The position numbers and the translations under genes were made by a program. From positions 17,719 through 81,718 of the forward strand of contig DASSQD010000035.1 of NCBI GenBank assembly GCA_035702665.1: a stretch of DNA of 64,000 nucleotides. Direction: 5' to 3'. The notes under the pieces are model-generated. The model was not told where the DNA came from. It saw only the letters and a list, made by a program, of their open reading frames with translations, and did not search any database. This DNA comes from Burkholderiales bacterium (GTDB lineage: Bacteria; Pseudomonadota; Gammaproteobacteria; Burkholderiales; SG8-39). Shown piece after piece: positions 4,028 to 33,540 of this stretch (its first letter is position 1; every line of letters begins with the position of its first letter).

Positions 4028-4043
4028 TGGCTGGAGGTAGCCG

Positions 4044-12712: not shown

Positions 12713-12866
12713 GAGTGCTTCCGGTATTTCTGGTAATAATGGTCCCGCTGTGCGAGGTCGAGGTCGCCGACGCGGTCCGGCAGGTGCGGGGCCGCGCAAT
12801 ATAAAATGTCACAGGCGAGGCATGGGGCCGACGCGGAAAGGGACGCAAGTTCCAAAGGAGAGAGAG

Positions 12867-13868: not shown

Positions 13869-13869
13869 C

Positions 13870-14433: not shown

Positions 14434-14470
14434 GATCCGGCGAGGCGCGCAGCGGGCAAGGAGGAGCCTG

Positions 14471-16650: not shown

Positions 16651-16732
16651 GGTTGAGGTCGCAGTACGACCTTAGACTTTTCAAGTTTTGGGAGACCGCA
16701 GCGTGCGGTCCGGCCAACGCAAGGAGACCACC

Positions 16733-18481
16733 ATGGGAACAGTCGAGCCGCAAGTCGCGTCCGGTCCCGACGCGCAAGCACAGCAGGTGACCGACGGCTT
16801 CAACCTGGTCATCGATGCCCTGAAGCTCAACGGCATCGACACGATCTACGGGCTGCCCGGCATTCCGATCACCGACCTCACCCGCCGCGCGCAGGCAGCG
16901 GGCCTGCGCGTGCTTTCCTTCCGTCACGAGCAGAACGCCGGCTATGCCGCGTCGATCGCAGGTTTCCTGACGCAGAAGCCCGGCATCTGCCTGACCGTAT
17001 CGGCGCCGGGCTTCCTCAACGGACTCAACGCGCTCGCGCACGCGACCGTCAACTGCTTTCCGATGATCCTGATCAGCGGCTCGAGCGAGCGGGAAATCGT
17101 CGACCTCCAGCAGGGCGACTACGAGGAGATGGATCAGCTCGCGATCGCCAAGCCGGTCGCCAAGGCGGCCTTCCGCGTGCTGCACGCCGAGGATATCGGC
17201 GTCGGCGTCGCGCGCGCCATCCGCGCCGCTGTCTCCGGCCGCCCGGGCGGCGTCTACCTCGACATGCCCGCGAAGCTCTTTGCGGAGAGCATCGACGCCG
17301 CGGCGGGGAAGAATTCGCTGATCAAGGTCGTCGACGCCGCGCCGCGCCAGATACCCGCGCCGGAGGCGGTCAAGCGTGCGCTCGACCTGCTGAAGGGCGC
17401 GAAGAAGCCGCTCATCATCCTCGGCAAGGGCGCGGCGTATGCGCAGGCCGATGCCGACATCAAGTCCCTGGTGGAGAAGTCCGGGATTCCCTACTTGCCG
17501 ATGTCGATGGCCAAGGGGCTGCTGCCCGACACGCACGAGCTATGCGCCTCCGCCGCCCGCTCCTTCGTGCTGCCCGGCGCCGACGTGGTGATGCTGATCG
17601 GCGCGCGCCTCAACTGGCTGCTCTCGCACGGCAAGGGCAAGACCTGGGGCGGCAAGGGGTCCAAGGACTGGGGTGGCCAGAAGTTCATCCAGATCGACAT
17701 CTCGCCTCAGGAAGCGGACAGCAACGTGCGCATCGACGCGCCACTGGTCGGCGATATTGGGTCCTGCGTATCCGCGCTGCTTGCGGGCGTCGGATCGCTG
17801 CCCAGGCCGCCGGCCGAGTGGCTGAACGCGGTACATGAGAAGAAGACGACCAACGTCGCCAAGATGGCCGAGACGCTGTCGAAGAATCCCTCGCCGATGA
17901 ATTTCCACAGCGCGCTGAACGTGGTGCGCGATGTCGTCAAGGCCAACCCGGACGCGATGCTCGTCAACGAGGGCGCGAATGCCCTCGACTTCACGCGCTC
18001 GATCGTCGACATGTACAAGCCGAGAAAGCGCATCGATGTCGGCACCTGGGGCATCATGGGCGTCGGCATGGGCTACTGCGTCGCAGCGGCCGTAGTCACC
18101 CAGCAGCAGGTGATCGCGATCGAGGGCGACAGCGCCTTCGGCTTCTCCGGCATGGAAGTCGAGACGATCTGCCGCTACAACCTGCCGGTGTGCATCGTGA
18201 TCATGAACAACAACGGCGTCTACAAGGGCACCGACGTCGATCCGAACGGCCGCGATCCGGCGCCGACCGTGTTCGTCAAGGGCGCGCGCTACGACAAGCT
18301 GATCGAGGCTTTCGGCGGCGCCGGGGTGAACGCCACGACCCCCGCCGAGCTGAGGAAGGCGATGGAAGACGCGATCCGCTCGAAGAAGCCCACGCTCATC
18401 AACGCCGTCATCGACGAGACCGCGGGCACCGAGAGCGGTCGCATCACAAGCCTGAACCCGAACGCCGGAAAGAAGAAGTAA
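16733..18481 (+). CDS. oxc: Oxalyl-CoA decarboxylase (ThDP-dependent)
   Basis: About 582 aa. [28 protein letters not shown] at the N-terminus, ThDP motif [31 protein letters not shown], adjacent to frc. AAGGAG RBS. Confidence 0.9.
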
Positions 18482-18484
18482 GCC

Positions 18485-19756
18485 ATGCAAGCCCTCAAGG
18501 GAGTCCGCATCCTCGACATGACGCACGTCCAGGCGGGCCCGACCTGCTCGCAGTTGCTCGCCTGGATGGGCGCCGACGTGATCAAGTTCGAGAACCCGCA
18601 GGGCGACGCGACGCGCGGCCAGCTGCGCGACGTGCCCAACGCCGACTCGCTGTACTTCACCATGCTCAACTGCAACAAGCGCTCCATCACGGTGAACATG
18701 AAGAGCGCCGAGGGCAAGACGGTGTTCGTCGATCTGCTGAGGAAATGCGACATCATCATGGAGAACTTCGGGCCCGGCGTGCTCGACCGCTTCGGCTTTT
18801 CCTGGGAGAAGATCCACGAGATCAACCCCAAGATCGTGATGGGCTCGATTAAGGGTTTCGGCTCCACCGGGCCGTACGCCGACTTCAAGGCCTACGAGAA
18901 CGTCGCGCAGGCGATGGGCGGCGCGATGAGCACCACCGGCGTGCCCGACGGGCCGCCGTTTGTCACCGGCGCGCAGATCGGCGACTCGGGGACAGGCCTG
19001 CATCTCGCGATCGGCCTGCTCGCCGCGCTGCGCCAGGCAGACAAGACCGGCCAGGGTCAGTACGTCGAAGTCGCGATGATGGACGGGGTGATGAACTTGT
19101 GCCGAGTCAAGTTCCGCGACCATCAGCGCCTGACGCGCGGGTCCCTCTCGGAATACTCGGTGCCGACCTACCAGAACATGGGCGATGTGCCGCGCGCCGG
19201 CAACGACTCGGGCGGCGGCCAGCTCGGCAACGCGGTCCATTGCAAGCCGCACGGAGCGAACGACTGGCTTTACGTGGTCGTGCAGGAAGCGGTGTGGGAA
19301 GACCTCGCGAAGCGCATCGGTCCGGACGTCGGCGTACCCGACCTCGCGACCGATCCGCGGGTGGCGACCATCGGCGAGCGCCGCAAGAACCAGAATCTCG
19401 TGTGGACGCTGCTCAACAAGTTCGCCGAGAAATACACCAAGCGCGAGCTGATGGCGATCCTCAACCCACTCGACGTGCCCTGCGGCCCGATCATGTCCAC
19501 CGAAGACCTGGCTACCGACGAGCACGTGCGCGGCCGCGACATGTGGGTCGAGCTCGATCATCCCAAACGGGGCAAGTGGTACAACGTCGGCATGCCGATC
19601 AAGCTCTCGGCCTCGCCCGCTGCGATCAAGCGCTCGCCCATGCTCGGGGAGCACACCGATGAGATCCTGAAGGAAGTCCTTGGGTACGACGACGCCAAGG
19701 TCGCCGGCCTCAAGCAGGCGGGCGCGTTCTCGATTCCTCCGAAGAAGGCGGCGTAG
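18485..19756 (+). CDS. frc: Formyl-CoA:oxalate CoA-transferase (family III CoA-transferase)
   Basis: [36 protein letters not shown]..., 423 aa, 3-nt gap after oxc. Confidence 0.9.
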
Positions 19757-19758
19757 GA

Positions 19759-20691
19759 ATGAAAATAGCCATCATCGGCCAGCAGGACTTCGGCAAGGCG
19801 GTCCTCGACGCCTTTCTCGCGCGCGGCGACCAGGTCGCCGGCGTGTTCTGCGCCCCGGAGAAGGAAGGCGCCAAGGCCGACGTCCTCAAGGTGGCCGCGC
19901 AGGAAAAGGGCGTGAAGGTGTTCCAGTTCTCTTCGCTGCGGGACAAGCAGGCGCACGATACGATGCGTTCGCTCGGCGTGGACCTAGGGGTCATGGCCTA
20001 CGTGCTGCAATTCGCGCCGCAGGATTTCGTGAACATCCCGAAGAAGGGCACCCTCCAGTATCACCCGTCGCTCCTCCCCAAGTACCGCGGCCCGAGCTCG
20101 ATCAACTGGCCCATCATCCGCGGAGACACCAAGACCGGTTTGACCATCTTCCGTCCGAATGACGGACTCGACGAAGGTCCGGTGATCCTGCAGAAAGAGA
20201 CGCCGATCAGCGCCGACGACACCCTGGGTAGCGTATATTTCGACCGCCTCTTTCCCATGGGTGTGAAGGCGATGCTGGAAGCGGCGGACCTGGTGACGGC
20301 GGGCAAGCACAAGGAGACTGTCCAGGATGAGGCCCTCGCGAGCTACGAAGGCTGGTGCCGCGCCGCCGAGGCCAAGATCAACTGGGCGAACCACGTCGAT
20401 TTCACCTATAACCTCATCCGAGGCTGCAATCCGGCCCCGGGCGCATGGACCACGCTCGCCGGCAAGAAGGTCCAGATCTTCGACGCCCGCAAGCACCTGG
20501 TGCGCACGTTCGGCGCAGTAAAGGGCAAGATCGGCGAGATCTCGGAGATCGGCCCGCAGAGCTTCTTCGTAACCGCCCAGGGAGGTCGGATCGAGGTGCT
20601 CAAGGCGAAGCACGAAGACGGCAAGAAGGTCTCCGCTGCGGAATTCGTCTCGCAGAACGGCATTGCGTCGGGCGCTCTGCTCGGCGGCTAG
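19759..20691 (+). CDS. Formyltransferase-family protein (Fmt / 10-formyl-THF dehydrogenase N-terminal hydrolase-like, N- and C-terminal domains)
   Basis: 310 aa. QYHPSLLPKYRGPSSINWPIIRGDTKTGLTIFRPNDGLDEGPVILQ carries the formyltransferase His and Asp. The start lies 2 nt after the frc stop. Confidence 0.7.
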   Translation: MKIAIIGQQDFGKAVLDAFLARGDQVAGVFCAPEKEGAKADVLKVAAQEKGVKVFQFSSLRDKQAHDTMRSLGVDLGVMAYVLQFAPQDFVNIPKKGTLQYHPSLLPKYRGPSSINWPIIRGDTKTGLTIFRPNDGLDEGPVILQKETPISADDTLGSVYFDRLFPMGVKAMLEAADLVTAGKHKETVQDEALASYEGWCRAAEAKINWANHVDFTYNLIRGCNPAPGAWTTLAGKKVQIFDARKHLVRTFGAVKGKIGEISEIGPQSFFVTAQGGRIEVLKAKHEDGKKVSAAEFVSQNGIASGALLGG

Positions 20692-20937: not shown

Positions 20938-23505
20938 ATGAGCAAAGCGGGCTTCTGGAAAAAGGACTGGTTCCTCGGTCTGGTGGTGTCGCTCGTGCTG
21001 TTGTTCGCCGGTGGCTCGCAGCTGATCCAGAGCCTGGAGCGCACGGCCTACGACTGGGGCGTCAGGGCGTCCTCGCGGATACCTTCCGACAAGGTCGCGA
21101 TCATCGCGATCGACAAGCAGAGCATCGACAACATCGGCCGCTGGCCCTGGTCGCGCGAGATTCACGCGAAGATGATCGAGCGACTCGCGGGCGTGAAGGC
21201 GAAGGTCATCGGCTACACGGTGTTCTTCTCGGAGCCGCAAATCGACCCGGGGTTCGCCTACGTCAACCGGCTTCTCGAGACCTACCACAAGATCGTTCCG
21301 GCCGACGCGAGCACGCCGCCCCGCGGCGTCTCCCCCGAAGTGCTGGAGATGGGCACTACGCTGCAGGAAGCGGAAAACGCGCTTAACACCGACCGGAAGC
21401 TGGCAGACAGCTTCGCCAAGGCGGGAAATGTGGTGCTGCCGATACTCTTCACCTTCGGCGAGCCACGCGGCAAGCCCGACAAGCCGCTTCCTGACTTTGT
21501 GCGGAAGAACGCGCTCGCCTTCCAGGGCAAGAGCGAGGACCTGCCGTTGCTCACGTCGGGGGTCGAGGTCCCCGTGGTCGAGAGCCTGGGCGCCGCGGCC
21601 GCGGCGGTGGGGCACCTGAACGCGGTTCCCGACGTCGACGGAGCGATTCGCACCGAGGCTTTGGCGATCACCTACTACGACGAGTTCTACCCGTCGCTCG
21701 CGGCGATGCTGGTGGCCAAGAGCCTCAACCTCACGGCCCAGGACATAAAGATTCGCCCGGGCGAGGCGCTGCAGATCGGGAATTTCAAGGTGAGCGCCGA
21801 TCCAACGATGCAGATGTACACGTACTTTTACAAGGACCGCGACGGCAGGCCCGCAATTCCGGAGGACTCGTTCTTCGACGTCGCGAGCGGCAAGATCCCG
21901 CTGGACAAGTACCGCGACAAGATCGTTCTTATCGGTCCGACCGCGGCCGGCGTCGGCAGTGTCTTCGTGACGCCGGTGAATCCGGCGATGTCGTCGGTCG
22001 AGCTCCTCGCCCACACGGTTTCCTCGCTGCTGCAAGGGCATTTCTTCGTCGCGCCCACCTGGGGCTGGATCGTCGAGAGGCTGGTGTTCCTGGTGGTCGC
22101 CGCGTACCTGATCGCGCTGCTTCCGCGTCTGTCCGCGGGCTTGGGCGCCGGTATCACTGCCGGCATCGTCGCATTGCTGCTCGCAACCCACTTCGTGCTC
22201 ATGACGGGTCAGGGGATGTGGCTGCAGCTCATGCTGCCGCTCACGCTCCTCGTCGTGGGGCACGTGCTGCTCGTGACCAAGCGCTTCATGGTCACGGAAC
22301 GCGGCAAGGAAGTGTCCGATGCACAATCGGCCGCGAACGCGCGCATGCTCGGCCTGGCGTTCCAGGGTCAGGGCCAGCTCGACATGGCCTTCGACTATTT
22401 CCGCAAGGTCCCGCTCGACGACACCGTGATGGACAACCTCTACAACCTCGCGCTGGACTTCGAGCGCAAGCGCCAGTTCAACAAGGCCGAGGCGGTGTTC
22501 AGCTACATGGCCGGGTACAACCCCAAATTCCGAGACCTCGAATCCAAGCTCTCCCGCGCCAAGCAGATGTCGGAGACAGTCATTCTCGGTGGGGCGACGA
22601 CCCACCCGGGCGGCACGCTGGCGCTGGGCGGAGGGACGGAAAAGCCGATGCTCGGGCGCTACCAGGTCGAGAAAGAGCTAGGCAAGGGCGCCATGGGTGT
22701 CGTATACCTGGGTAAGGACCCGAAGATCGGCCGGGTCGTCGCTATCAAGACGATGGCGCTGTCGCAGGAATTCGAGGCGGACGAGTTGGCCGAGGTAAAG
22801 GAGCGGTTCTTCCGGGAGGCGGAGACGGCGGGGCGCTTGAGCCACCCGAACATCGTGACGATCTTCGATGCCGGCGAAGAGCACGACCTGTGCTACATCG
22901 CGATGGAGCTTCTGAAGGGAAAGGACCTGATTCCCTATACCAAGGCCGGCAGCACCCTCCCGCTGGAGAAGGTCGTATCGATTGTCGCGCGGGTCGCCGA
23001 TGCGCTGGGGTACGCGCACAAGCACAACGTGGTGCACCGGGACGTCAAGCCGGCGAACGTCATGTACGAGCTGGAGAACGACGTGGTCAAGGTGACCGAT
23101 TTCGGCATTGCCAGGATCACCGACTCCTCCAGGACGAAGACCGGTATGGTGCTGGGCACGCCGTCCTACATGTCACCCGAGCAGCTGCAGGGAAAGAAGA
23201 TCGACGGTCGCAGCGACCTGTTCTCGCTCGCGGTCAGCTTGTACCAGTTGGCCTGCGGCGAGCTGCCCTTCAAGGGAGAATCGATGGCGCAGCTCATGTA
23301 CAAGATCGCGAACGAGGACGCCCCTGATATCCTGAAGTACAACACCACGCTTCCCCCGGCGTTCGTCGCGTTTCTGGACAAGGCCATGTCGAAGGAGGCC
23401 GATCAGCGCTTCCAGACCGGCGAGGAGTTCGCCTCTGCGTTACGGGCTGCCGTTGGCGGTACGGGTGCCGCTGCGGCGGGCACCGGGGTCGACATCACCC
23501 TCTGA
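20938..23505 (+). CDS. CHASE2 sensor / TM / TPR-like / Hanks-type Ser/Thr protein kinase
   Basis: 855 aa. The N-terminus has TM1 then IAIDKQSIDNIGRWPWSR (CHASE2), and three TM segments at about residues 380-450. The C-terminal kinase carries GKGAMGVVYLG, VAIKTM, HRDVKPANV, DFGIAR and GTPSYMSPE. Confidence 0.85.
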   Translation: MSKAGFWKKDWFLGLVVSLVLLFAGGSQLIQSLERTAYDWGVRASSRIPSDKVAIIAIDKQSIDNIGRWPWSREIHAKMIERLAGVKAKVIGYTVFFSEPQIDPGFAYVNRLLETYHKIVPADASTPPRGVSPEVLEMGTTLQEAENALNTDRKLADSFAKAGNVVLPILFTFGEPRGKPDKPLPDFVRKNALAFQGKSEDLPLLTSGVEVPVVESLGAAAAAVGHLNAVPDVDGAIRTEALAITYYDEFYPSLAAMLVAKSLNLTAQDIKIRPGEALQIGNFKVSADPTMQMYTYFYKDRDGRPAIPEDSFFDVASGKIPLDKYRDKIVLIGPTAAGVGSVFVTPVNPAMSSVELLAHTVSSLLQGHFFVAPTWGWIVERLVFLVVAAYLIALLPRLSAGLGAGITAGIVALLLATHFVLMTGQGMWLQLMLPLTLLVVGHVLLVTKRFMVTERGKEVSDAQSAANARMLGLAFQGQGQLDMAFDYFRKVPLDDTVMDNLYNLALDFERKRQFNKAEAVFSYMAGYNPKFRDLESKLSRAKQMSETVILGGATTHPGGTLALGGGTEKPMLGRYQVEKELGKGAMGVVYLGKDPKIGRVVAIKTMALSQEFEADELAEVKERFFREAETAGRLSHPNIVTIFDAGEEHDLCYIAMELLKGKDLIPYTKAGSTLPLEKVVSIVARVADALGYAHKHNVVHRDVKPANVMYELENDVVKVTDFGIARITDSSRTKTGMVLGTPSYMSPEQLQGKKIDGRSDLFSLAVSLYQLACGELPFKGESMAQLMYKIANEDAPDILKYNTTLPPAFVAFLDKAMSKEADQRFQTGEEFASALRAAVGGTGAAAAGTGVDITL

Positions 23506-23520: not shown

Positions 23521-24345
23521 ATGAGCCTGTCGGGAGCACTGGAGATCGCGAGCTGTACGGATCCCGGGATGGTGCGGGCTCACAACGAGGACTCGATCGC
23601 CTCCGACGGGGAAAAGGGACTGGTGGTCCTCGCCGACGGAATGGGGGGCTACAACGCGGGGGAGGTGGCGAGCGGCATGGCGACGACGGTGATCATCACC
23701 GAGTTGCAGCACTTGCTCGACAAGAGGACCCCGTACGAAACCGACGCGGCGAGCGGCCAGGTGATCGCGCACCAGCTGCTTCACGAGCAGATCGCCAAGG
23801 CGAACACCTCGATCTATCAGGCAGCGCAGAGCCAGCCTCAGTACGCCGGCATGGGGACGACACTGGTCGTCGCCCTGTTCTACGACAACAAGATGACGGT
23901 GGCGCATATCGGCGATTCACGCCTCTATCGCATGAGAGGCGACGAGCTGAAGCAGATCACCAAGGACCACTCCCTGCTGCAGGAGCAAATCGACAGCGGG
24001 GTGATCACCCCTCAGCAGGCCAAGCAATCGCAGAACAAGAACCTGGTCACGCGCGCTCTGGGCATCGATCCGATCGTCGAGCCCGAGATCCACGATCACG
24101 AGACGCAGCCGGGAGACATCTATCTGCTCTGCTCGGACGGCCTTTGTGATATGGTTGGCGACGAGGACATCGGCCTGGCGCTGCAAACACTGAGCTCCAA
24201 CTTGAAGCTGTGCGCACAGCATCTGGTGCAGACGGCGAACGACAACGGGGGCCGGGACAATATTTCGGTAATACTCGTTCGGGTGCTGCGGGACTTCCCC
24301 GCTTCGCGCGGCATCGTTGGCAAGCTGATGAGCTGGTTTAGATAG
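23521..24345 (+). CDS. PP2C-family Ser/Thr protein phosphatase
   Basis: 274 aa with RAHNEDS, LADGMGG, GTTLVV and SDGL..., NGGRDNISV motifs. Confidence 0.85.
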   Translation: MSLSGALEIASCTDPGMVRAHNEDSIASDGEKGLVVLADGMGGYNAGEVASGMATTVIITELQHLLDKRTPYETDAASGQVIAHQLLHEQIAKANTSIYQAAQSQPQYAGMGTTLVVALFYDNKMTVAHIGDSRLYRMRGDELKQITKDHSLLQEQIDSGVITPQQAKQSQNKNLVTRALGIDPIVEPEIHDHETQPGDIYLLCSDGLCDMVGDEDIGLALQTLSSNLKLCAQHLVQTANDNGGRDNISVILVRVLRDFPASRGIVGKLMSWFR

Positions 24346-24365: not shown

Positions 24366-25124
24366 ATGGCGAAGCTGATACTGAGCATGGACGGCCTGGT
24401 TCTGAAGGAAATCAACTTGACCAAGGAACGTACCACCATCGGCCGCAAGCCGCATAACGACATCCAGATCGACAATCTCGCGGTGAGCGGGGAGCACGCC
24501 GTGATTGTCACCATCCTGCAGGATTCGTTTCTCGAGGACCTCGGCAGCACGAACGGAACGGTCGTGAACGGACAATCGATCAAGAAGCACTTCCTGCAGA
24601 ACAACGACATCATCGAGCTAGGCAAGTACAAACTCAAGTACGTCAACGAGACGCCCGCGGGCATGGCGAAAGCCGCCGATTTCGAGAAAACCATGGTTCT
24701 GCGCCCCGGCGCGACTAGGCCAGCGGCATCCGCTGCTCCCGCCGCGCCGGTAGCCGCGGCCGCACCGGCACCCGCGGCGGCGAAGGCTGGCGACACCGTC
24801 CAGGGGCCTGCCACGACCATGCCACCGGCGGCTGCCAAGCCGGCGACGAGCGCCCCGCAGAAATCGGCGGCCCTGCAACTCCTTTCCGGGGCGAACGCCG
24901 GCAAGGAGCTCGATCTCACCAAGCCGCTCACGACGCTCGGCAAGCCTGGCGTGCAGGTCGCCGTCATCACGCGCAGGCCCCAGGGGTTCTTCATCACGCA
25001 TGTCGAGGGGGCCAGCTTTCCGGTGGTGAACGGCAAGCCGCTCGACGCCCAGGCGCACGCGTTGAACGATCACGACGTGATCGAGCTGGCCGGAGTCAAG
25101 ATGGAATTCTTCCTGAAGGCGTGA
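24366..25124 (+). CDS. FHA-domain protein (canonical N-terminal FHA, Ala/Pro-rich linker, degenerate C-terminal FHA-like domain)
   Basis: N-terminal TIGRKPHNDIQIDNLAVSGEHAVI...STNGTVVNG carries the G-R / S-x-x-H / N-G signature. The C-terminal domain (TTLGKPGVQVAVI...ITHVEG...VNGK) lacks the Arg and Ser. Confidence 0.8.
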   Translation: MAKLILSMDGLVLKEINLTKERTTIGRKPHNDIQIDNLAVSGEHAVIVTILQDSFLEDLGSTNGTVVNGQSIKKHFLQNNDIIELGKYKLKYVNETPAGMAKAADFEKTMVLRPGATRPAASAAPAAPVAAAAPAPAAAKAGDTVQGPATTMPPAAAKPATSAPQKSAALQLLSGANAGKELDLTKPLTTLGKPGVQVAVITRRPQGFFITHVEGASFPVVNGKPLDAQAHALNDHDVIELAGVKMEFFLKA

Positions 25125-25158: not shown

Positions 25159-27420
25159 CTGAAGCAGCATATCGTCCGAATTGCGCTTGGCCTCCTCGTC
25201 ACGCTGGTCTTTCTGGGGCACGCCGCCAAGCTCTATCAGATAGGGTTCATTACCCAGCTCGACAACATCATCTACGACTATCGGCTGCGCCTGACCATGC
25301 CGGGCACGGTCGACGACAGGATCGTAATCCTGGACATCGACGAGCGCAGCTTGGACCCGCGCGCTCTGGGGCGCTGGCCATGGAGCCGCGACAAGATCGC
25401 AGTGCTCCTCCAGAAGCTGTTCGACAAGTACGGCGTTCTCATCGTCGGCTTCGACGTCGTCTTCGCCGAGCCGGACGAGAGCTCCGGCCTCCCGGTCCTC
25501 GAGCGGCTGGGTAAAACACGTCTCAAGGACATCGGCGCCTTCCAGTCCGCGCTCGTGCAGTTGCGCCCCGAGCTGGATTACGACACGAGCTTCGCGAACT
25601 ACATTCGCGGACGGCCCGTGGTCCTCAGCTACTATTTCAACAGCGACAAGAACGCGGTCGAGAGCGGCGCGCTGCCCGAGCCCGTTCTCCCAGCCGAAAC
25701 GTTCAGCGGAAGGCGGATCACGATCCTCGATTGGCGCGGGTACACGGGTAACCTGGCCGAGTTCCAGGCGAATGCCAGCGCCGGTCATTTCAATCCGCGG
25801 GTGGACGACGACGGTGTATCACGGCGCGTGCCGATGCTCGCGGAATACAAGGGCCAGTACTACGAGGCGTTCTCCCTGGCGATCGTGCGGATGTACCTCG
25901 CGATCCAGGAAGCGGCGAGAAGCAAGGCGGCCGCGGTCAAGCTGCCGGATGTCAAGATCAACGCGATCCCGGATCGCTTCGTCACGCGCGGCTACACGGG
26001 AGTGGAGTGGCTCGAGGTGGGCCCCCTCAAAGTGCCCGTAGACGACGAAATTGCCGCGCAGGTTCCGTACCGCGGCCCGAGAGGCAGCTTCCCCTATGTT
26101 TCGCTGGCGGACATCTGGTCGGACAAAGTTGCGTCGGAGAAACTCCGAGGCAAGATCGCGCTGGTCGGCGCTACCGCGCCCGGCCTGTTCGATCTTCGTT
26201 CCGCACCGGTCGGGAATGTCTACCCTGGGGTGGAAATACACGCCAACCTGGTTGCAGGAATTCTCGACGGCAAGCTCAAGCAAAAGCCGCCGTACATGCT
26301 CGGTGCGGAAGTGGTGCTCCTTGTTATCGGCGGCATCGCGCTCACGTTTTTGATTCCCTTGCTTTCGCCCCTCTGGGCCTCGGCCGCGGCGCTGATCGGG
26401 ACGGCCCTCATTACACTCGTCGACCTCGCGCTGTGGTCGTATTCCGGCTTGGTGCTGCCCCTCGCCGCGTCGGTCCTGATGACTGCCACTCTGTATACGG
26501 TCAACATGGCTTACGGGTACTTCGTCGAGGCGCGTTCCAAGCGGCAGTTCACGGAGCTCTTTGGGCAATATGTCCCACCAGAGCTGGTGGACAAGATGGC
26601 CGAAGACCCGCAGCAGTATACGATGGAGCCGCACAACGCCGAGCTCACCATCCTGTTCTCCGACGTACGCGGATTTACCAGCATTTCGGAAGCGCTCAGC
26701 CCCGAGCACCTGCGCGAATACATCAACGAGTACTTGACCGACATGAGCGACATCATCCGCGCGAAGCACCGCGGCACGCTCGACAAGTACATCGGCGACG
26801 CGATCATGGCGTTCTGGAATGCCCCGGTCGAGGACAAATTCCACCCCCGCAGTGGCGTTCTCGCTGCGATGGAGATGCTGCGCCAGTGCGATGTCTTGAA
26901 CCAGAGGTTCGCCGCGCGCGGATGGCCGACACTCAAGATCGGCATCGGCGTCAACTCCGGAAACGTGCGCGTCGGCGACATGGGGTCCAAGATACGCAAG
27001 GCGTACACCGCGATGGGCGATGCGGTGAACGTTGCCTCGAGACTGGAAGGCAGGACCAAGCATTACGGGGCAGGGATACTCGTCGGTGAGGAGACACGCA
27101 AGGTTGTCCAGGACGTGGTTTTCAAGGAGATCGACAAGATCAAAGTCAAGGGGAAGGACGAGGCAATCACGATCTACGAGCCGGTCGGGATGGAGACCCA
27201 CGTCGAAAAGCGGGTTCTCGAGGAGCTCAAGCTCTGGCACCAGACACTGCGGCAATATCGCCTGCACCAGTGGGACCAGGTCGAGGTGGGTCTACTGAAT
27301 CTGCAGCGCATGAATCCCGACTGCTACCTCTACAAGCTGTACGCCAGCGAGGTCGCCGACAAGCGCCGTAATCCGCCGCCGGCCGGGTGGGACGGCGTAA
27401 CGGTGTTCGATGAAAAATAG
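25159..27420 (+). CDS. CHASE2 sensor / TM / class III adenylate cyclase (IIIb-like), probable non-canonical CTG start
   Basis: The first ATG (25297) would remove TM1 and the start of CHASE2. The frame is open from 25117 and encodes LKQHIVRIALGLLVTLVFLGHAAKLYQ..., homologous to the N-terminus of the kinase's CHASE2 domain. GGAGG at 25150-25154. Catalytic domain: ILFSDVRGFT, LDKYIGDAIMAFW, YTAMGDAVNVASRLE. Confidence 0.75.
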   Translation: MKQHIVRIALGLLVTLVFLGHAAKLYQIGFITQLDNIIYDYRLRLTMPGTVDDRIVILDIDERSLDPRALGRWPWSRDKIAVLLQKLFDKYGVLIVGFDVVFAEPDESSGLPVLERLGKTRLKDIGAFQSALVQLRPELDYDTSFANYIRGRPVVLSYYFNSDKNAVESGALPEPVLPAETFSGRRITILDWRGYTGNLAEFQANASAGHFNPRVDDDGVSRRVPMLAEYKGQYYEAFSLAIVRMYLAIQEAARSKAAAVKLPDVKINAIPDRFVTRGYTGVEWLEVGPLKVPVDDEIAAQVPYRGPRGSFPYVSLADIWSDKVASEKLRGKIALVGATAPGLFDLRSAPVGNVYPGVEIHANLVAGILDGKLKQKPPYMLGAEVVLLVIGGIALTFLIPLLSPLWASAAALIGTALITLVDLALWSYSGLVLPLAASVLMTATLYTVNMAYGYFVEARSKRQFTELFGQYVPPELVDKMAEDPQQYTMEPHNAELTILFSDVRGFTSISEALSPEHLREYINEYLTDMSDIIRAKHRGTLDKYIGDAIMAFWNAPVEDKFHPRSGVLAAMEMLRQCDVLNQRFAARGWPTLKIGIGVNSGNVRVGDMGSKIRKAYTAMGDAVNVASRLEGRTKHYGAGILVGEETRKVVQDVVFKEIDKIKVKGKDEAITIYEPVGMETHVEKRVLEELKLWHQTLRQYRLHQWDQVEVGLLNLQRMNPDCYLYKLYASEVADKRRNPPPAGWDGVTVFDEK

Positions 27421-27435: not shown

Positions 27436-28203
27436 ATGAAGCTCAGGATTCTGGGCTGCAGCGGAGGCATAGGCGGGCGGCACCTCCGCACGACGTCCAT
27501 GCTGCTGGACAACGATATCCTCGTCGACGCCGGGACCGGGGTAGCAGATCTTTCCCTGACCGAGCTCTCCCTCATCGACCACGTTTTCCTGACACACTCG
27601 CACCTGGACCACATCTCGAGCATCCCGTTCATGGTGGACACGGTCGGTGGAATGCGCGACCAGCCGCTCACGGTCTGGGCAGTACCGGCGACGCTCGAGA
27701 TCCTGCGCAGCCACATCTTCAACTGGAGCGTCTGGCCGGACTTCTCACAGATTCCAAGCCCGGACCAGCCGTTTCTCAGGTATCGCGAGATCCAGGTCGG
27801 CGACACGGTCGAGTTGAAAAAGCGAAAGCTGACGGCGCTTCCCGCCAACCATGTCGTACCCGCCGTCGGGTATCACCTGGATTCCGGAAAGGGCAGCCTG
27901 GTATTCACCGGTGACACCACGACGAACGATCCTCTTTGGGTTATCGTCAACAAGATATCCAATCTGAAGTACCTGATCATCGAGACCGCCTTCTGCAACC
28001 GCGAGAAGGAGCTGGCGGTGATCTCGAAACATCTCTGCCCGAGCATGCTCGCCGACGAGTTGGGCAAGCTCGAGCGCACCGCGGAGATCTACATCACCCA
28101 TCTAAAGCCGGGTGAAATCGAGTTGACCATGCAGGAAATCGAGGAGGACGCAGGCCAGTACCGCCCGCGGATGCTGCAAAACAATCAGGTTTTTGAGTTC
28201 TGA
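27436..28203 (+). CDS. Class II 3',5'-cyclic-nucleotide phosphodiesterase (metallo-beta-lactamase fold)
   Basis: 255 aa. MKLRILGCSGG..., the HSHLDH motif (THSHLDHISSIP) and the overall length match the class II cAMP PDE family. Confidence 0.75.
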   Translation: MKLRILGCSGGIGGRHLRTTSMLLDNDILVDAGTGVADLSLTELSLIDHVFLTHSHLDHISSIPFMVDTVGGMRDQPLTVWAVPATLEILRSHIFNWSVWPDFSQIPSPDQPFLRYREIQVGDTVELKKRKLTALPANHVVPAVGYHLDSGKGSLVFTGDTTTNDPLWVIVNKISNLKYLIIETAFCNREKELAVISKHLCPSMLADELGKLERTAEIYITHLKPGEIELTMQEIEEDAGQYRPRMLQNNQVFEF

Positions 28204-28215: not shown

Positions 28216-29283
28216 ATGTGCGCGACTAGAGTGAGCGCGGAGACGTTGAAAGGCTTCGAGCCCATCGGCTCGCTGCCCGACTCGCGCCTCAACGAGCTCG
28301 CGGGGCTCTGCAAGCTCGAGACGGTCGGCAAGGACTCCGAGTCGTTTCTGGTTCGCAACATCTCCGGACAGGCCGTCTATCTGCTGCGCGGGGAACTAGT
28401 GCTGACCTACCCGGACGGTACGTCGAAGATCCTCGTGGGAGGCTCGGAGCGCTCGCGATATCCGCTCGCACATCGCGGCGAAGTCTTCACGAGCGCCAAG
28501 GCCGTCACGGAAGTGGAGCTGATGCGCATCGACGACGACCTTCTCGACGTCATGGCAACTTGGGATCAGGTCGCCGCGGTCGAGAGCTCGCCGAAGAAGA
28601 CCGCAAAGGAGAGCGGCGCATTCGCCAACTGGTCGATGATGTCGGGGATGTTCAGCGTCAGCAGCCTGAAGTACGGTGCTTTCTCGCAATTGCCGCCGGC
28701 ACATATCGACGAGCTGCTGGGTCGCTTCGAGCGCGTTACGTTCAAGAAGGGCGATGTCGTGATTCGCGAGGGTGCGGAGGGCGACTTCTATTTCGTGATC
28801 GAAACGGGCCGGTGCAGGGTCGAGCGGATGGTCGGGGGAGTGTCCATGCTGCTCGCCGAGCTGAAGAGCGGAGACGCTTTCGGCGAGGAGGCGCTGGTGT
28901 CCGAGGTCAAGCGCAATGCCACGGTGACGATGAAGAGCGACGGCACATTGCTGAAGCTATCGAAGAAGGATTTCGTGGAGCTGCTGCGCGAGCCGCTGCT
29001 GCAGCGCATATCCGCGGAGGACGCGCGCGCGAAGGTGGTCGACGGTGCGCAGTGGATCGACGTGCGCTATCCGTCCGAATACCAGTACGACAAACTTCCC
29101 GGGGCCATCAATATTCCCCTGTCGGACATTCGCAATGCCTTCGGCGCCCTGGACAAGGGAAAGGAGTACGTGCTCTACTGCCAGAGCGAGCGCCGCAGCG
29201 CCGCGGCGGCGTTTCTCATGGCCCAGCGGGGGTACCGGGCGTACGTGCTCGCGGGCGGCCTCTGGGGCGAAACGAAGCGGTGA
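28216..29283 (+). CDS. Cyclic-nucleotide-binding domain protein with a C-terminal rhodanese domain
   Basis: A degenerate N-terminal CNB-like domain. A second CNB domain has an intact phosphate-binding cassette (GDAFGEEALVSEVKRNATV). The C-terminal rhodanese has WIDVRYPSEY...YCQSERRSAAAA, including the active-site Cys loop. Confidence 0.8.
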   Translation: MCATRVSAETLKGFEPIGSLPDSRLNELAGLCKLETVGKDSESFLVRNISGQAVYLLRGELVLTYPDGTSKILVGGSERSRYPLAHRGEVFTSAKAVTEVELMRIDDDLLDVMATWDQVAAVESSPKKTAKESGAFANWSMMSGMFSVSSLKYGAFSQLPPAHIDELLGRFERVTFKKGDVVIREGAEGDFYFVIETGRCRVERMVGGVSMLLAELKSGDAFGEEALVSEVKRNATVTMKSDGTLLKLSKKDFVELLREPLLQRISAEDARAKVVDGAQWIDVRYPSEYQYDKLPGAINIPLSDIRNAFGALDKGKEYVLYCQSERRSAAAAFLMAQRGYRAYVLAGGLWGETKR

Positions 29284-29451: not shown

Positions 29452-31818
29452 ATGAGCGCGGTACTACAGACGCACGTGGGCGCGGCCGGCGATGTCAACA
29501 GCCGGTTGAATTTCCAGAAGAATCTCCAGAGCGTCACCAACAAGATCCACGCCACCACCAACGTGGATGAGATCATGCTGGAAGTCAGCGCCGACATCTG
29601 CACCTTGTTCAACGCCGACCGCCTGACGATCTACACCGTGGGCGAGGACAAGCAGAGCATTGTCTCCAAGGTCAAGACGGGCCTCAACTCGTTCAAAGAC
29701 CTCAAGCTGCCCATCGCAGAGCACTCCATCGCAGGCTTCGTTGCGCTGTCGAAGAAGATGCTCAGCCTGAGGGACGTCTACGACGAGAGCGAGCTCAGGG
29801 CACACAATCACAATTTGCGCTTTCTGCAGGAAGTCGACAAGCGCACGGGCTATCGCACCAAGCAGATGCTGGTTGCGCCGGTGGCGGAGCCCGGAAGCGG
29901 GGAACTGGTCGGTGTAGTCCAGTTAATCAACAACAAGGCCGGCGTTCCCTTTGGCCAACTCGCCGAAGAGGGCGTGAGCGAGCTTTGCCAGACGCTGGCT
30001 ATCGCCCTCAAGCAGCGCCAGAAGCCGCAGGTTCTCAAGACCAAGTACGACTTCCTCGTCGGCGACGCGGTGATCTCCGCCGCGGAGTTCGAGCTGGCGG
30101 CGCGCTCGGCGCGCAAGAAGGCGGTCGACGTCGAAGATGTGCTGACCCAGGAATTCCAGGTCAAGCTTCCCGCGATAGGCGCGGCGCTGGCGAAGTTCTT
30201 CGGGACGCCCTACGAGCCTTTCAAGCCGGATCGCATCAAGCCGATGGATCTGCTGAAGAACCTGAAGCGCGAGTACGTGGATTCCAATCAATGGGTCCCG
30301 ATCGAGGATTCCAAGGAAGGCCTCGTTATCCTTTGCCTCGATCCGGAGCGAATCAAGAGCTCGCGCATCGTCCAGAACGTCTTCCCGGGCCGCAAGCTGA
30401 CGTACCGCGTCACGACTCTCAAGGAGTTCAAGGACACGCTCAAGGCCTTCTATGGCGCGGACGCGGTCGACAGCGGCGACATCGGCGACATGCTTCACGA
30501 CCTCCAGGAAGACGAAGGTCCGGCGGAGACGGGGGATGACGATGTTTCGGCGGCGGCCGACAACGAGTTGGTCAAGCTGGTCAACAAGATCATCATCGAT
30601 GCCTACAACCAGGGTGCCTCCGACATCCACATCGAGCCTTATCCGGGCAAGGGGAAGACCGAGATCCGACTAAGAAAAGACGGCTCGCTGGTTCCCTATA
30701 TCGAGGTCCCGGGGTCCTACCGGAACGCCATTGTGGCGCGCATCAAGATCATGTGCGATCTCGACATCTCGGAAAAGCGCAAGCCGCAGGACGGCAAGAT
30801 CAAGTTCAAGAAATTCGGGCCGCTCGACATCGAGCTGCGGGTGGCGACGATTCCGTCCCAGGGCGGCGTCGAGGACGTGGTCATGCGTATCCTCGCCGCG
30901 GGGGAGCCTATCCCGATCGACAAGCTGGGGCTTTCGCCTTCAAACCTGCCAAAGCTCAAGGAGACGGTCAGCAAGCCCTACGGGCTGTTCTTCTGCTGCG
31001 GTCCCACTGGCTCGGGCAAGACCACGACGCTGCACTCGGTGCTGGGTTTCCTGAACACGCCCGACACCAAGATCTGGACTGCCGAGGACCCGGTCGAAAT
31101 CACGCAGAAAGGCCTGCGCCAGGTGCAGGTCAACAAGAAGGCGGGTCTCGATTTCGCTGCGGTCATGAAGTCCTTCCTCCGCGCGGATCCGGACATCATC
31201 ATGGTCGGCGAGATGCGCGACAAGGAGACCACCGGGACCGGCATCGAGGCCTCGCTCACGGGTCACTTGGTGTTCGCGACGCTGCATACCAACAGCGCTC
31301 CCGAATCCATCATCCGCTTGCTCGACATGGGTATGGACCCCTTCAATTTCGCCGACGCGCTGCTGGGGATTCTCGCGCAGCGGCTGGCCAAGCGCCTCTG
31401 CAGCAAGTGCAAGCAGCCCTACGCCGCCGGCGCGGACGAGATGAAGCATATCCTGCAAGAGTATTGCACCGAACTTCTGAATACCGGCCCGTTCAAGAAG
31501 GACGCCAAATCAGCCTACGAGCATGTCTACCGTGACCTTGCGAAGCACTACGCCAACGACAAGGGGCAGTTCACCCTTTACAGGGCCAAGGGCTGCGATG
31601 CCTGCGGCAATACGGGATACAAAGGGCGGGTCGGTCTGCACGAGCTCCTGATTGCGTCCGATCACCTCAAGAAGTTGATCCAGGAGCACGCGCGGGTAGC
31701 CGAGATCCTGGCGCTCGCCCTTGAAGAAGGTATGCGGACCCTGAAGATGGATGGCATCGAGAAGGTGCTTCAAGGCATTACCGACATGCCGCAGGTCCGC
31801 GCGGTCTGCATCAAGTAA
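29452..31818 (+). CDS. PilB/GspE-family secretion ATPase with an N-terminal GAF domain and a T2SSE_N domain
   Basis: About 788 aa. The GAF domain lies at about residues 30-190 (...FLQEVDKRTGYRTKQMLVAPV...GVVQLINNK). Walker A GPTGSGKTT, Walker B DPDIIMVGEMRD, His box GHLVFATLHTN, tetra-Cys CSKC...CDAC. ATG at 29452 (track start: TTG at 29446). Confidence 0.85.
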   Translation: MSAVLQTHVGAAGDVNSRLNFQKNLQSVTNKIHATTNVDEIMLEVSADICTLFNADRLTIYTVGEDKQSIVSKVKTGLNSFKDLKLPIAEHSIAGFVALSKKMLSLRDVYDESELRAHNHNLRFLQEVDKRTGYRTKQMLVAPVAEPGSGELVGVVQLINNKAGVPFGQLAEEGVSELCQTLAIALKQRQKPQVLKTKYDFLVGDAVISAAEFELAARSARKKAVDVEDVLTQEFQVKLPAIGAALAKFFGTPYEPFKPDRIKPMDLLKNLKREYVDSNQWVPIEDSKEGLVILCLDPERIKSSRIVQNVFPGRKLTYRVTTLKEFKDTLKAFYGADAVDSGDIGDMLHDLQEDEGPAETGDDDVSAAADNELVKLVNKIIIDAYNQGASDIHIEPYPGKGKTEIRLRKDGSLVPYIEVPGSYRNAIVARIKIMCDLDISEKRKPQDGKIKFKKFGPLDIELRVATIPSQGGVEDVVMRILAAGEPIPIDKLGLSPSNLPKLKETVSKPYGLFFCCGPTGSGKTTTLHSVLGFLNTPDTKIWTAEDPVEITQKGLRQVQVNKKAGLDFAAVMKSFLRADPDIIMVGEMRDKETTGTGIEASLTGHLVFATLHTNSAPESIIRLLDMGMDPFNFADALLGILAQRLAKRLCSKCKQPYAAGADEMKHILQEYCTELLNTGPFKKDAKSAYEHVYRDLAKHYANDKGQFTLYRAKGCDACGNTGYKGRVGLHELLIASDHLKKLIQEHARVAEILALALEEGMRTLKMDGIEKVLQGITDMPQVRAVCIK

Positions 31819-31865
31819 GGCGGCGCGACGCCGCTCGATCCACGGCCGGCTACCCTGGGGGGTTC

Positions 31866-33521
31866 TTGGAGACCGACGAAGATCTGTTTCGCCGTCTCGA
31901 GCAGCTTAACGAGATCGGCTCTGCCCTCTCGCAGGAGAAAGATATCGATCACCTGCTGGAGAAGATCCTTCTCGCGGCGAAGGCGATCACGCGTGCCGCG
32001 GGCGGTACCCTGTACGTCCTGGAGCCCTCCGATGAGGGCCCGCGGCTCAGGTTCGCGATCATGAGGAACGAGGCATTGGGCATTGCGATGGGAGGCACCA
32101 CCGGCAACCCCATACCCTTCTATCCGGTTCACCTGTACGGAAAGGACGGAAAACCGAACAACCAGATGGTCGCTGCGTATGCGGCCCTTACCAGCAAGAC
32201 GGTCAACATCGCAGACGCCTATTCGGAAGAGGGTTTCGATTTCTCCGGGACACGCAATTTCGACAGGAAGACGGGATACCGATCCAAAGCTTTCCTCACC
32301 GTTCCGATGAAGAACCACGAAGGCGAGATCATCGGCGTGCTCCAGTTGATCAACCGCATGGAGCCGGGAACGAACGAGGTAGGCCCTTTTGCCTCGTCCG
32401 ACCAGCGTCTTGCGGAATCTCTCGCGTCGCAGGCTGCCATCGCGCTTACGAATCGGCAGCTCATCAATCAGCTCGAGGTATTGTTCGAGTCCTTCATCGC
32501 GCTCATCAACACCGCTATAGACGAGAAGTCCCCGTACACGGGGGGGCACTGTCAGCGCGTCCCTGTGCTCACGATGATGCTCGCCGAGGCTGTCAACGAG
32601 ACTTATGAAGGGCCGCTTCGCGAATTCAAGATGACCGACAAGGACCGCTATGAGCTTAAGATAGCCGGCCTGCTGCACGATTGCGGGAAAGTGACGACTC
32701 CGGTGCACGTCGTGGACAAGGCCACCAAGCTCGAGACGATCTTCGACCGGATCAATCTTCTGGACACGCGTTTCGAGGTGCTCAAGCGCGATCTCGAGAT
32801 CGAGGCGTTGATGCGCAAGCTTGAGGTCGCGCGGAAGCGTGGCCTGAGCGAGAGCGCTGCGCGCGAGGAATCGGCGCGCGTCGACGAGGGCTATCGCGAA
32901 GGTCTGCGGGCCCTGGAAAGCGACCGCGAGTTCCTGCGTCACGCCAACATCGGGGGTGAGGTCATGTCGGCTGAGGCGCGTGATCGCGTGGTCCGCATCG
33001 GTACCGGGCGCAAGTGGGTCGACGCGACAGGGAACATGGCGGACTTCCTCACGCCCGACGAGATCAACAACCTCACGATCGCTCGCGGTACGCTGACCCA
33101 GGAGGAACGCGAGACCATCAACCACCACATCGTCGCTACGATAAAGATGCTTGAGGCGCTGCCTTGGCCCAAGCATCTGCGCAACGTCCCGGAATACGCC
33201 GGCGGTCACCACGAACGCATGGACGGGAAGGGCTATCCCCGGGGACTGACGCGCGAGAAGATGTCCGTCCAAGCCCGGGTCATGGGGATTGCCGACATAT
33301 TCGAGGCACTGACGGCGAAAGACCGGCCGTACAAGCGCGGCAAGACTCTCTCCGAGTCGCTGAAGATTCTAGGCAACTTCCGGTTGAACGGCCACATCGA
33401 TCCGGACCTGTTCGACGTATTCGTGCGCAAGAAGGTGTATTTGCGCTATGCCGAACAGTTCCTCGACCGTGATCAGATCGACGAGGTCGAAGAGTCCAAG
33501 ATCCCGGGATTCGTGCCGTAG
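31866..33521 (+). CDS. GAF-domain HD-GYP phosphohydrolase (putative c-di-GMP phosphodiesterase)
   Basis: 551 aa. N-terminal GAF (...NFDRKTGYRSKAFLTVPM...GVLQLINRM). HD-GYP core: LLHDCGK ... GGHHERMDGKGYPRGL. TTG start. Confidence 0.85.
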   Translation: METDEDLFRRLEQLNEIGSALSQEKDIDHLLEKILLAAKAITRAAGGTLYVLEPSDEGPRLRFAIMRNEALGIAMGGTTGNPIPFYPVHLYGKDGKPNNQMVAAYAALTSKTVNIADAYSEEGFDFSGTRNFDRKTGYRSKAFLTVPMKNHEGEIIGVLQLINRMEPGTNEVGPFASSDQRLAESLASQAAIALTNRQLINQLEVLFESFIALINTAIDEKSPYTGGHCQRVPVLTMMLAEAVNETYEGPLREFKMTDKDRYELKIAGLLHDCGKVTTPVHVVDKATKLETIFDRINLLDTRFEVLKRDLEIEALMRKLEVARKRGLSESAAREESARVDEGYREGLRALESDREFLRHANIGGEVMSAEARDRVVRIGTGRKWVDATGNMADFLTPDEINNLTIARGTLTQEERETINHHIVATIKMLEALPWPKHLRNVPEYAGGHHERMDGKGYPRGLTREKMSVQARVMGIADIFEALTAKDRPYKRGKTLSESLKILGNFRLNGHIDPDLFDVFVRKKVYLRYAEQFLDRDQIDEVEESKIPGFVP

Positions 33522-33540
33522 GTCCCGGGAATACGGTTTG

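Follow-up and report, generated by a model that had tools for sequence, protein, structure and literature searches.

A PilB/GspE-like ATPase with a cyclic-nucleotide-type GAF domain, encoded within a conserved betaproteobacterial gene cluster

Two adjacent genes for GAF-domain proteins were examined in a 64,000-nucleotide (nt) stretch of DNA from a Burkholderiales bacterium (assembly GCA_035702665.1, contig DASSQD010000035.1, positions 17,719 to 81,718), hereafter called the window. The first encodes a PilB/GspE-like ATPase and the second an HD-GYP enzyme. An earlier note on this DNA, made from the sequence alone, had described the ATPase as an orphan, had called the two GAF domains paralogous, and had likened them to GAF domains that bind cyclic nucleoside monophosphates (cNMPs). 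It had further proposed that a co-encoded cyclic AMP (cAMP) cyclase controls the ATPase and that the HD-GYP enzyme couples cAMP to turnover of cyclic di-GMP (c-di-GMP). All coordinates refer to the whole 64-kb window, and ATPase residue numbers are counted from the TTG codon at 29446. The features at the centre of the analysis are as follows.

29452..31818, + strand: GAF – degenerate MshEN – T2SSE ATPase, PilB/GspE-like (Pfam, PDB alignment, motifs)
29503..30030, + strand: GAF domain of the ATPase (residues ~20–195), with a cAMP-type pocket signature (PDB phmmer, alignment, AlphaFold2 (AF2)/Foldseek)
30040..30462, + strand: MshEN-like region of the ATPase (residues ~199–339), fold kept and c-di-GMP motifs lost (Foldseek, motif scan)
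31866..33521, + strand: GAF – HD-GYP phosphodiesterase, 551 amino acids (aa), PmGH-type with an inserted helical segment (Pfam, motifs, 4MCW)

Results

Domain organization of the ATPase

The ATPase open reading frame (ORF) opens at TTG 29446, which gives a protein of 790 aa, and yields 788 aa from ATG 29452; the latter is the likely start because 788 aa is the length of most homologues. Pfam places a GAF domain at residues 40–188 (E 4e-08), an MshEN domain at 252–339 (2e-07), and a T2SSE domain at 371–784 (9e-114; 380 bits against a cut-off of 24.9 for PF00437). The extra GAF domain that had been proposed ahead of MshEN/T2SSE is thus borne out, and the ATPase strings quoted in its support, FLQEVDKRTGYRTKQMLVAPV...GELVGVVQLINNK, are found at residues 126–164.

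Residues 203–665 align with residues 8–466 of PilB from M. xanthus (3JC8, E 1.4e-108), and the next-best solved relatives are PilF of T. thermophilus and PilB of Geobacter. The motifs expected of an assembly ATPase are intact, namely Walker A (GPTGSGKT at 519), Walker B (IIMVGEMRD at 584), the His box (TGH at 605), and the tetracysteine zinc-binding motif (CSKC at 652 and CDAC at 717). Scores nevertheless fall below the NCBIfam equivalog cut-offs for both PilB (TIGR02538, 481 against 675.65) and GspE (TIGR02533, 440.3 against 630.25), which places the protein in a separate subfamily within the assembly-ATPase clade. The two CxxC pairs lie 61 residues apart (window 31399–31605, residues 652–720), a spacing that appears longer than usual. 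The T2SSE profile, of 370 positions, is stretched over 414 residues of the ATPase, from which it follows that the C-terminal metal-binding subdomain carries an insertion; this insertion is conserved in the family consensus.

Subfamily and pocket of the ATPase GAF domain

Searches of the PDB with phmmer returned CyaB2 of Anabaena (1YKD, 2.6e-25), PDE10A GAF-B (1.1e-08), and PDE2A GAF-B as the best matches of the ATPase GAF domain. An AF2 model of ATPase residues 1–375 had a mean predicted local distance difference test (pLDDT) score of 78, with the GAF blocks (residues 21–190) mostly at 70–93, two blocks at 66 and 70, and the loop at 78–82 below 50. Foldseek matched this model to PmGH, CyaB2, PDE2A, PDE5A, PDE10A, PDE6, and cAMP-bound Lcd1. 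The suggested resemblance to the GAF domains of PDE2/5/10 and CyaB is therefore real, both by phmmer and by fold.

In CyaB2 GAF-B, Arg291 contacts N1 of the adenine of cAMP and Thr293 contacts N6 and N7, Ile308 stacks on the base, Thr309 contributes through its backbone, Asp356 and Asn359 reach N3 by way of water, and the isolated domain binds cAMP as well as cGMP (PMC4411481). Both window GAF domains were aligned with MAFFT to the corresponding segments of CyaB2, PDE10A, PDE2A, and PDE5A. CyaB2 residues R291, T293, I308, D356, and N359 correspond to R59, T61, V76, D131, and T134 of the ATPase, which carries the motifs ADR59-L-T61 (within N-A-D-R59-L-T61) and TGYRT138. The ADRxT motif is found in the ATPase GAF and in both CyaB2 GAF domains; at this position the cAMP binder PDE10A reads ADRCA and the cGMP-specific PDE2A reads AEICS.

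A conservation alignment of 45 ATPases from betaproteobacteria and Nitrospinota showed R59, D131, T138, and N162 to be invariant and T61, T134, K164, and F169 to be conserved in at least 90% of sequences. The pattern [AS][DE]R.[TS] was present in 120 of 120 betaproteobacterial ATPase orthologues. That the cAMP-contact residues vary little or not at all across two phyla argues for a conserved ligand pocket in the ATPase GAF. On this evidence, the domain is best read as a cyclic-nucleotide sensor, the ligand of which is probably cAMP.

Loss of the c-di-GMP motifs from the MshEN segment

The c-di-GMP site of MshEN domains is made of two tandem 24-residue motifs, RLGxx(L/V/I)(L/V/I)xxG(L/V/I)(L/V/I)xxxxLxxxLxxQ, for which a relaxed pattern has also been given (Wang et al. 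2016, PMC5013675). The MshEN segment of the ATPase is recognized by Pfam (31 bits against a cut-off of 23.1) and was modelled by AF2 with pLDDT 81–95 over residues 201–330. Foldseek matched it to the N-domain of V. cholerae MshE with c-di-GMP (5HTL_B), with a template modelling (TM) score of 0.70 over 140 columns.

Neither the strict nor the relaxed motif was found in the ATPase, whereas a control fragment of M. xanthus PilB matched, and the relaxed motif was present in 0 of 240 family members (120 betaproteobacterial and 120 Nitrospinota-type). Alignment to M. xanthus PilB puts KYD (motif 1) and DVE (motif 2) where RLG would stand, and neither motif retains its terminal Gln. The family consensus likewise has KYD at the RLG position and a substitution of the motif-terminal Gln. 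This family-wide loss appears to be undescribed, and it strengthens the earlier idea of a nucleotide input unlike the binding of c-di-GMP by MshEN.

The GAF–HD-GYP enzyme

The protein encoded directly downstream contains a GAF domain (residues 26–194, 6e-13), an HD domain (227–300), and an HD_5 domain (396–515, 2e-44) by Pfam, and its catalytic motifs are intact (HD at 271 and HHERMDGKGYP at 448–458). The HD-GYP strings quoted previously, NFDRKTGYRSKAFLTVPM...GEIIGVLQLINRM, occur at residues 131–164. The best solved relative is PmGH (4MCW, 4e-30), which aligns in two pieces around an insertion of ~115 residues, and the second-best PDB match is a cyclic GMP-AMP (cGAMP) phosphodiesterase; the predicted substrate is c-di-GMP or 3'3'-cGAMP. 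Foldseek on a low-confidence AF2 model also ranked PmGH first, repeating the sequence result. The ~115-residue insertion (window 32733–33077, residues ~290–404) forms two long helices in this model, and an insertion at the same site is present in REC-GAF-HD-GYP enzymes of the LIC_11189 type (PMC12943098). The Glu that holds the third metal in PmGH appears to be aligned with Tyr224.

The best PDB matches of the HD-GYP GAF domain are PDE5A (5e-21), CyaB2 (3e-12), and PmGH, which on sequence evidence puts this domain, too, in the cNMP-type GAF subfamily. In the MAFFT alignment it reads R-A-A-G46-G-T48, with the Arg that contacts adenine N1 replaced by Gly46, and 35 residues are inserted behind the second strand; T48, D133, T136, and S140 are retained. 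Four of the five residues of the NKFDE signature are kept (N163, R164, F175, and D179), and the Glu is replaced by Gln180.

Relation of the two GAF domains

By BLASTP, the two window GAF domains share 33% identity over 104 aa (52 bits, E 3e-13 for this single comparison), a similarity well beyond chance that is confined to the C-terminal half of the domain. With phmmer, the ATPase GAF scored 33 bits against the HD-GYP GAF, 38 against PDE10A, 44 and 51 against GAF-A and GAF-B of CyaB2, and 131 against the GAF of a Nitrospinota ATPase. The two domains are thus paralogous in the broad, subfamily-level sense of the word; a recent or close paralogy is ruled out by their mutual phmmer score, which lies below those of CyaB2 and PDE10A.

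The ATPase GAF was also searched exhaustively against 1.84 billion cluster representatives, which gave 3618 matches at E ≤ 1e-3, 942 at ≤ 1e-10, and 133 at ≤ 1e-30. When the best 150 matches were classified with phmmer, nearly all of those long enough to judge were GAF–ATPases, and 2 were HD-GYP proteins. Their architectures comprised one, two, or three GAF domains followed by an MshEN-like domain and T2SSE, or GAF fused directly to the ATPase.

Neighbouring genes

The two GAF genes sit in an 11-gene co-directional block with short intergenic gaps. The other members of the block are listed below.

20938..23505, + strand: CHASE2 – Hanks-type Ser/Thr protein kinase, 855 aa (Pfam CHASE2 1.9e-54, Pkinase 3.8e-54)
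23521..24345, + strand: PP2C-type Ser/Thr phosphatase, 274 aa (NCBIfam Stp1_PP2C_phos 254.9 bits against 230; Pfam PP2C)
24366..25124, + strand: FHA-domain protein, 252 aa, phospho-Thr reader (Pfam FHA 4e-22, residues 23–86)
25297..27420, + strand: CHASE2 – class III nucleotide cyclase, adenylate-type, 707 aa (Pfam CHASE2 2e-49, Guanylate_cyc 4e-22)
27436..28203, + strand: metallo-beta-lactamase-fold, class II cNMP-phosphodiesterase-like protein, 255 aa (Lactamase_B_2 5e-17, PDEase_II 6e-14)
28216..29283, + strand: cNMP-binding – rhodanese protein, 355 aa (Pfam cNMP_binding 3e-19, Rhodanese 5e-15)
33448..35856, + strand: protein with tetratricopeptide repeats (TPR) and a GT41-like glycosyltransferase domain (Pfam TPR families, Glyco_transf_41 5e-22)
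36034..36525, + strand: type IV pilin, 163 aa from ATG 36034, with an N-terminal methylation motif (Pfam Pilin 1.4e-12, N_methyl 1e-09; TIGR02532)
36583..38274, + strand: polytopic membrane protein with C-terminal TPR (Pfam PMT_2 (GT-C) 5e-04, below cut-off; TPR families)

The cyclase domain (Guanylate_cyc, 79 bits) is closest to P. aeruginosa CyaB (3R5G, 2e-32) and, like it, has the substrate pair Lys (DKYIGD) and Thr (YTAMGD). At these positions Glu and Gly are found in the guanylate cyclase Cya2, an engineered adenylate version of which carries Lys. The claim of a co-encoded cAMP cyclase is supported to the extent that this residue pair predicts the substrate. The phosphodiesterase-like protein has the HxHxDH motif in the form THSHLDH, and the ~160 N-terminal residues of the cNMP-binding – rhodanese protein had no domain match. 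The CHASE2 regions of the kinase (20938–22500) and the cyclase (25297–26640) are 25% identical (E 2e-22), which indicates two old, distinct inputs in one operon and not a recent duplication.

On the downstream side, the TPR-GT41 ORF, if translated from ATG 33448, would share 74 nt with the end of the HD-GYP gene (3'). It looks like a lineage-specific insertion, because a pilin gene usually follows the HD-GYP gene in relatives; in the related loci, only weak or displaced TPR-GT41 matches were found at the corresponding position. The pilin encoded at 36034–36525 is type IVa-like. The PMT_2-like membrane protein encoded directly after it occurs only in the closest relatives (e.g. loci L002, L004, and L010) and is a possible pilin-modifying enzyme. 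The arrangement resembles that of pilin-glycosylating accessory genes such as P. aeruginosa tfpW.

The block is flanked by housekeeping genes or genes of one-carbon (C1) metabolism. Directly upstream lies a formate/oxalate-type C1 block (window 2333–6851, 10208–11926, 12699–15988, and 16688–20691) with Nuo51-like and molybdopterin subunits (formate-dehydrogenase-like), formate-tetrahydrofolate ligase, a TctCBA transporter, a thiamine pyrophosphate enzyme, a family III CoA-transferase, and a formyltransferase. A 221-aa protein encoded within it on the – strand (15985–16650) matches cNMP_binding (8.7e-10) and is a second cyclic-nucleotide receptor candidate. A scan of 20.4–38.7 kb for promoters and terminators gave the same counts as shuffled sequences.

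Distribution and gene order

A distribution scan with one genome per species, built on five close ATPase sequences, found relatives of the GAF–ATPase in at least 585 species-level genomes, and the family is abundant in metagenome-assembled betaproteobacterial genomes from soil, groundwater, and wastewater. Synteny was analysed by tblastn of the window cluster proteins against the best 80 of these at least 585 loci (≥69% identity). This set is purely betaproteobacterial because the scan was built on five closer sequences; its genomes are mostly metagenome-assembled and include the complete genome of Ca. Desulfobacillus denitrificans.

Within the set, genes in the same order and on the same strand were found for the HD-GYP enzyme in 72 of 80 loci, the cyclase in 68, the phosphodiesterase in 65, the FHA protein in 60, the kinase in 58, the cNMP-binding protein in 55, and the PP2C phosphatase in 52, with the missing genes largely explained by short contigs. 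Where the flank was long enough (41 loci), all eight genes were present in 22; the cNMP-binding protein alone was absent from 5 loci, and it was absent together with the phosphodiesterase from 4. Of 56 evaluable loci, 35 had a + strand pilin gene downstream of the HD-GYP gene, directly adjacent (within 700 nt) in 12. The conserved order is thus CHASE2-kinase, PP2C, FHA, CHASE2-cyclase, phosphodiesterase, cNMP-binding protein, GAF–ATPase, and GAF–HD-GYP, often followed by a pilin, and an operon of this kind appears to be undescribed.

A distant branch of the ATPase is abundant in Nitrospinota, in single-GAF (~770 aa) and tandem-GAF (~950–1000 aa) forms. Among 120 Nitrospinota-like sequences, of which ~30 were of single-GAF length, ADRxT was present in 29 and TGYxT in 46, and most tandem-GAF forms had neither. 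This loss of the signature suggests a different ligand in that branch. Two Nitrospinota loci (L082, 10001–12844, Ca. Nitronauta litoralis CP048685; L081, 10001–12319) are true orphans, in which the neighbours of the ATPase are gyrA/gyrB, topA, dprA, and carAB. The fusion therefore does not depend on the cAMP operon, and a cAMP operon that travels with the fusion outside the betaproteobacteria is ruled out at these two loci, which have housekeeping neighbours only.

Discussion

A proposed cAMP-centred operon

The gene content suggests a conserved betaproteobacterial signalling operon centred on cAMP and containing a cAMP-gated pilus ATPase, an overall picture that we regard as the most likely one on offer, though evenly poised in itself. 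In this proposal, the membrane CHASE2 adenylate cyclase and the metallo-beta-lactamase-fold phosphodiesterase would set the level of cAMP, which would be read by the cNMP-binding/rhodanese protein, by the PilB-like ATPase, and possibly by the GAF–HD-GYP enzyme. The GAF domain of the ATPase would take over the role of nucleotide input that is held by c-di-GMP binding to MshEN_N in ATPases of the MshE/PilB type. Binding of cAMP to it is predicted to switch the hexameric motor, by changing its activity or its engagement with the pilus platform. This would most likely turn on polymerization of the downstream pilin through type IV pilus machinery encoded elsewhere. In parallel, the HD-GYP enzyme would lower c-di-GMP or cGAMP, and the CHASE2 Ser/Thr kinase, PP2C phosphatase, and FHA protein may add a branch with phospho-threonine input.

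The ligand of the GAF domain is the point at which this proposal is most readily challenged. The domain might instead sense a different small molecule (cGMP or some other nucleotide, or a metabolite) or be limited to dimerization or to docking a partner such as the FHA protein, in which case linkage to the cyclase would reflect shared regulation and not direct sensing. Several observations weigh against cAMP and in favour of such a role. GAF domains bind many types of ligand, and their nucleotide specificity is hard to read from sequence; the NKFDE signature of the ATPase GAF is incomplete, keeping four of five positions (N162, K164, F169, and E174), with the Asp replaced by Ala173; PmGH, a top structural match, has no known GAF ligand; and the two Nitrospinota loci have no cyclase, phosphodiesterase, HD-GYP, or pilin gene nearby, most tandem-GAF relatives from that phylum also being without ADRxT/TGYxT. 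Set against this, the ATPase GAF keeps the cAMP-contacting residues of CyaB2 with little or no variation across two phyla, its best matches in sequence and fold are cNMP-binding GAF domains, and the operon encodes an adenylate-type cyclase along with a cNMP-phosphodiesterase-like enzyme and another protein with a cNMP-binding domain. A GAF domain with another ligand or a docking role is therefore considered unlikely, although it survives best among the alternatives.

The case for cAMP is less clear in the HD-GYP enzyme. With Gly46 in place of the Arg and the added insertion, its GAF domain may sense something else, and a ligand shared by the two GAF domains is for the same two reasons unsupported. 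The AF2 model of this protein, built on a shallow alignment (84–91% identity), reached a pLDDT of 60 and fell below 50 in the region of the GAF pocket. The proposed coupling of cAMP to c-di-GMP turnover through a GAF–HD-GYP enzyme has a precedent in Tlr0485 and is a mechanism already known.

A second alternative grants the assembly ATPase but not its role as motor of the neighbouring pilin. It could drive a different type IV filament, or a system like type II secretion, whose genes lie elsewhere, or it could work mainly in signalling, in the way that M. xanthus PilB controls exopolysaccharide, the pilin being adjacent incidentally. The ORFs of the 64-kb window include none for PilC, PilMNOPQ, PilT, or other platform, alignment, or secretin proteins; a downstream pilin is absent from 21 of the 56 evaluable loci, a linkage that is frequent and not universal; the scores under the PilB and GspE cut-offs would leave the filament system of the ATPase unassigned; and the Nitrospinota homologues are true orphans. 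These points count against the pilus output proposed above. They are countered by the best solved relatives, all of which are pilus extension ATPases, by the intact catalytic and zinc motifs, and by the pilin gene that follows the HD-GYP gene in most evaluable loci, and we consider this alternative improbable, placing it second among the alternatives. As to the description of the ATPase as an orphan, it holds for the absence of platform, alignment, and secretin genes in 64 kb and fails for the type IVa-like pilin.

An anti-phage system of the Pycsar kind, in which infection would trigger the cyclase and cNMP-binding-domain effectors would respond, is very improbable and is disfavoured: PADLOC did match the cyclase domain to PycC models (best 2.8e-28, partial), the cNMP-binding domain to PycTIR models over their cNMP part, and the kinase to PD-T4-6 models, but these are generic domain similarities, the ATPase and the HD-GYP enzyme have no PADLOC match, no protein of the cluster is a TIR or transmembrane effector (in the effector-like protein the partner domain is rhodanese), the Lys/Thr pair of the cyclase is of the purine/adenylate kind and its sensor a periplasmic CHASE2, and neither a gene order kept in 80 species genomes nor the housekeeping flanks of the window are typical of a variable defence island.

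Returning to the cAMP-centred proposal, its most specific element is that cAMP would gate a type IV filament motor directly. In a large, mostly uncultured betaproteobacterial clade, c-di-GMP sensing by MshEN would have given way to a cAMP-sensing GAF domain, within a self-contained operon in which the extracytoplasmic CHASE2 sensors of the adenylate cyclase and the Ser/Thr kinase could control pilus assembly post-translationally while c-di-GMP is cleared. This is advanced tentatively, with rather less confidence than the overall picture. If true, the motor itself would be the cAMP receptor, which is a kind of effector so far not known from bacteria, and the family would provide a natural example of the replacement of a sensor module on the same machine. 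If the GAF domain binds cAMP and switches the ATPase, the pilus motor would have a direct, fast cAMP input. Second-messenger control of type IV pilus and secretion motors is otherwise attributed to c-di-GMP, by its action on MshEN or by way of PilZ/FimX adaptors, and to our knowledge cAMP acts on pili solely through transcription (Vfr, Sycrp1). A defined test could draw entirely on the operon, which encodes the cyclase, the phosphodiesterase, the predicted receptor ATPase, the c-di-GMP phosphodiesterase, and the pilin; the operon may also offer a handle on the unknown ligand of CHASE2. Because the family is abundant in genomes from soil, groundwater, and wastewater, the behaviour under its control is probably ecologically common.

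Comparison with known systems

Full-text literature searches, from which most subscription journals were outside coverage, returned neither a functional study of a PilB/GspE ATPase fused to a GAF domain nor an account of the operon. The architecture itself is known: GAF – MshEN – T2SSE is listed without reference or function for Geobacter lovleyi Glov_1971 and for gamma- and deltaproteobacteria, in a table that also lists MshEN – T2SSE – cNMPbind (Wang et al. 2016, Suppl. Table 4, PMC5013675). Compared by listed architecture, the domain order of Glov_1971 is identical to that of the window ATPase. The window family differs from this listing in its occurrence in betaproteobacteria and Nitrospinota and in its degenerate MshEN domain, and the betaproteobacterial members add the cAMP operon. 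A rare or unique fusion is ruled out by the at least 585 species genomes, the Nitrospinota branch, and the 2016 listing. Of the possibility raised in the earlier note that the fusion is frequent and already characterized, the first half stands, and the second does not, the catalogued entry being uncharacterized. A CyaB2-like cAMP pocket on the motor likewise appears to be undescribed.

The MshE/PilB ATPases (V. cholerae MshE, 5HTL; P. aeruginosa PA14_29490; PMC5013675) have in common with the window ATPase the core MshEN fold, the N1/N2 and T2SSE domains, the Walker A/B and His-box motifs, and the tetracysteine zinc site. They differ in that the window ATPase is without both c-di-GMP motifs and has an additional cNMP-type GAF domain in front, with cAMP as the predicted messenger. 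The logic would be the same, in that an N-terminal module of the motor itself is predicted to sense a nucleotide second messenger. With the GAF domains of CyaB2/CyaB1 and PDE10A (1YKD, 2ZMF), the ATPase GAF shares ADRxT, a hydrophobic residue at the I308 position, the D356 equivalent, TGY(R/T)T, and the fold. It differs from them in being single and not tandem, in having a secretion-type ATPase as output, and in the Asp to Ala change in NKFDE.

GAF–HD-GYP proteins have been named the PmGH family. Regulation of such an enzyme by cAMP is already known from Tlr0485 of Thermosynechococcus, in which cAMP binding to the GAF is reported to switch on c-di-GMP hydrolysis by HD-GYP (Enomoto et al. 2020). 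Further cross-talk from cAMP to c-di-GMP is described for Lcd1 (cAMP-GAF-GGDEF) and Bd1971 (cNMP-binding-EAL). The 551-aa window protein has the same architecture as PmGH and Tlr0485, with intact HD and HHExxDGxGYP motifs, and is distinguished by the ~115-residue insertion, by Gly46 in place of the Arg, and by the 35-residue insertion in the GAF domain.

The link between a CyaB-like membrane class III adenylate cyclase and type IV pili is shared with the CyaB-cAMP-Vfr/Pil-Chp system of P. aeruginosa. In P. aeruginosa, cAMP acts on pili through the transcription factor Vfr, and the input domain of CyaB is MASE2. The window cyclase has CHASE2 as its input domain instead, and its predicted cAMP receptor is the assembly ATPase itself.

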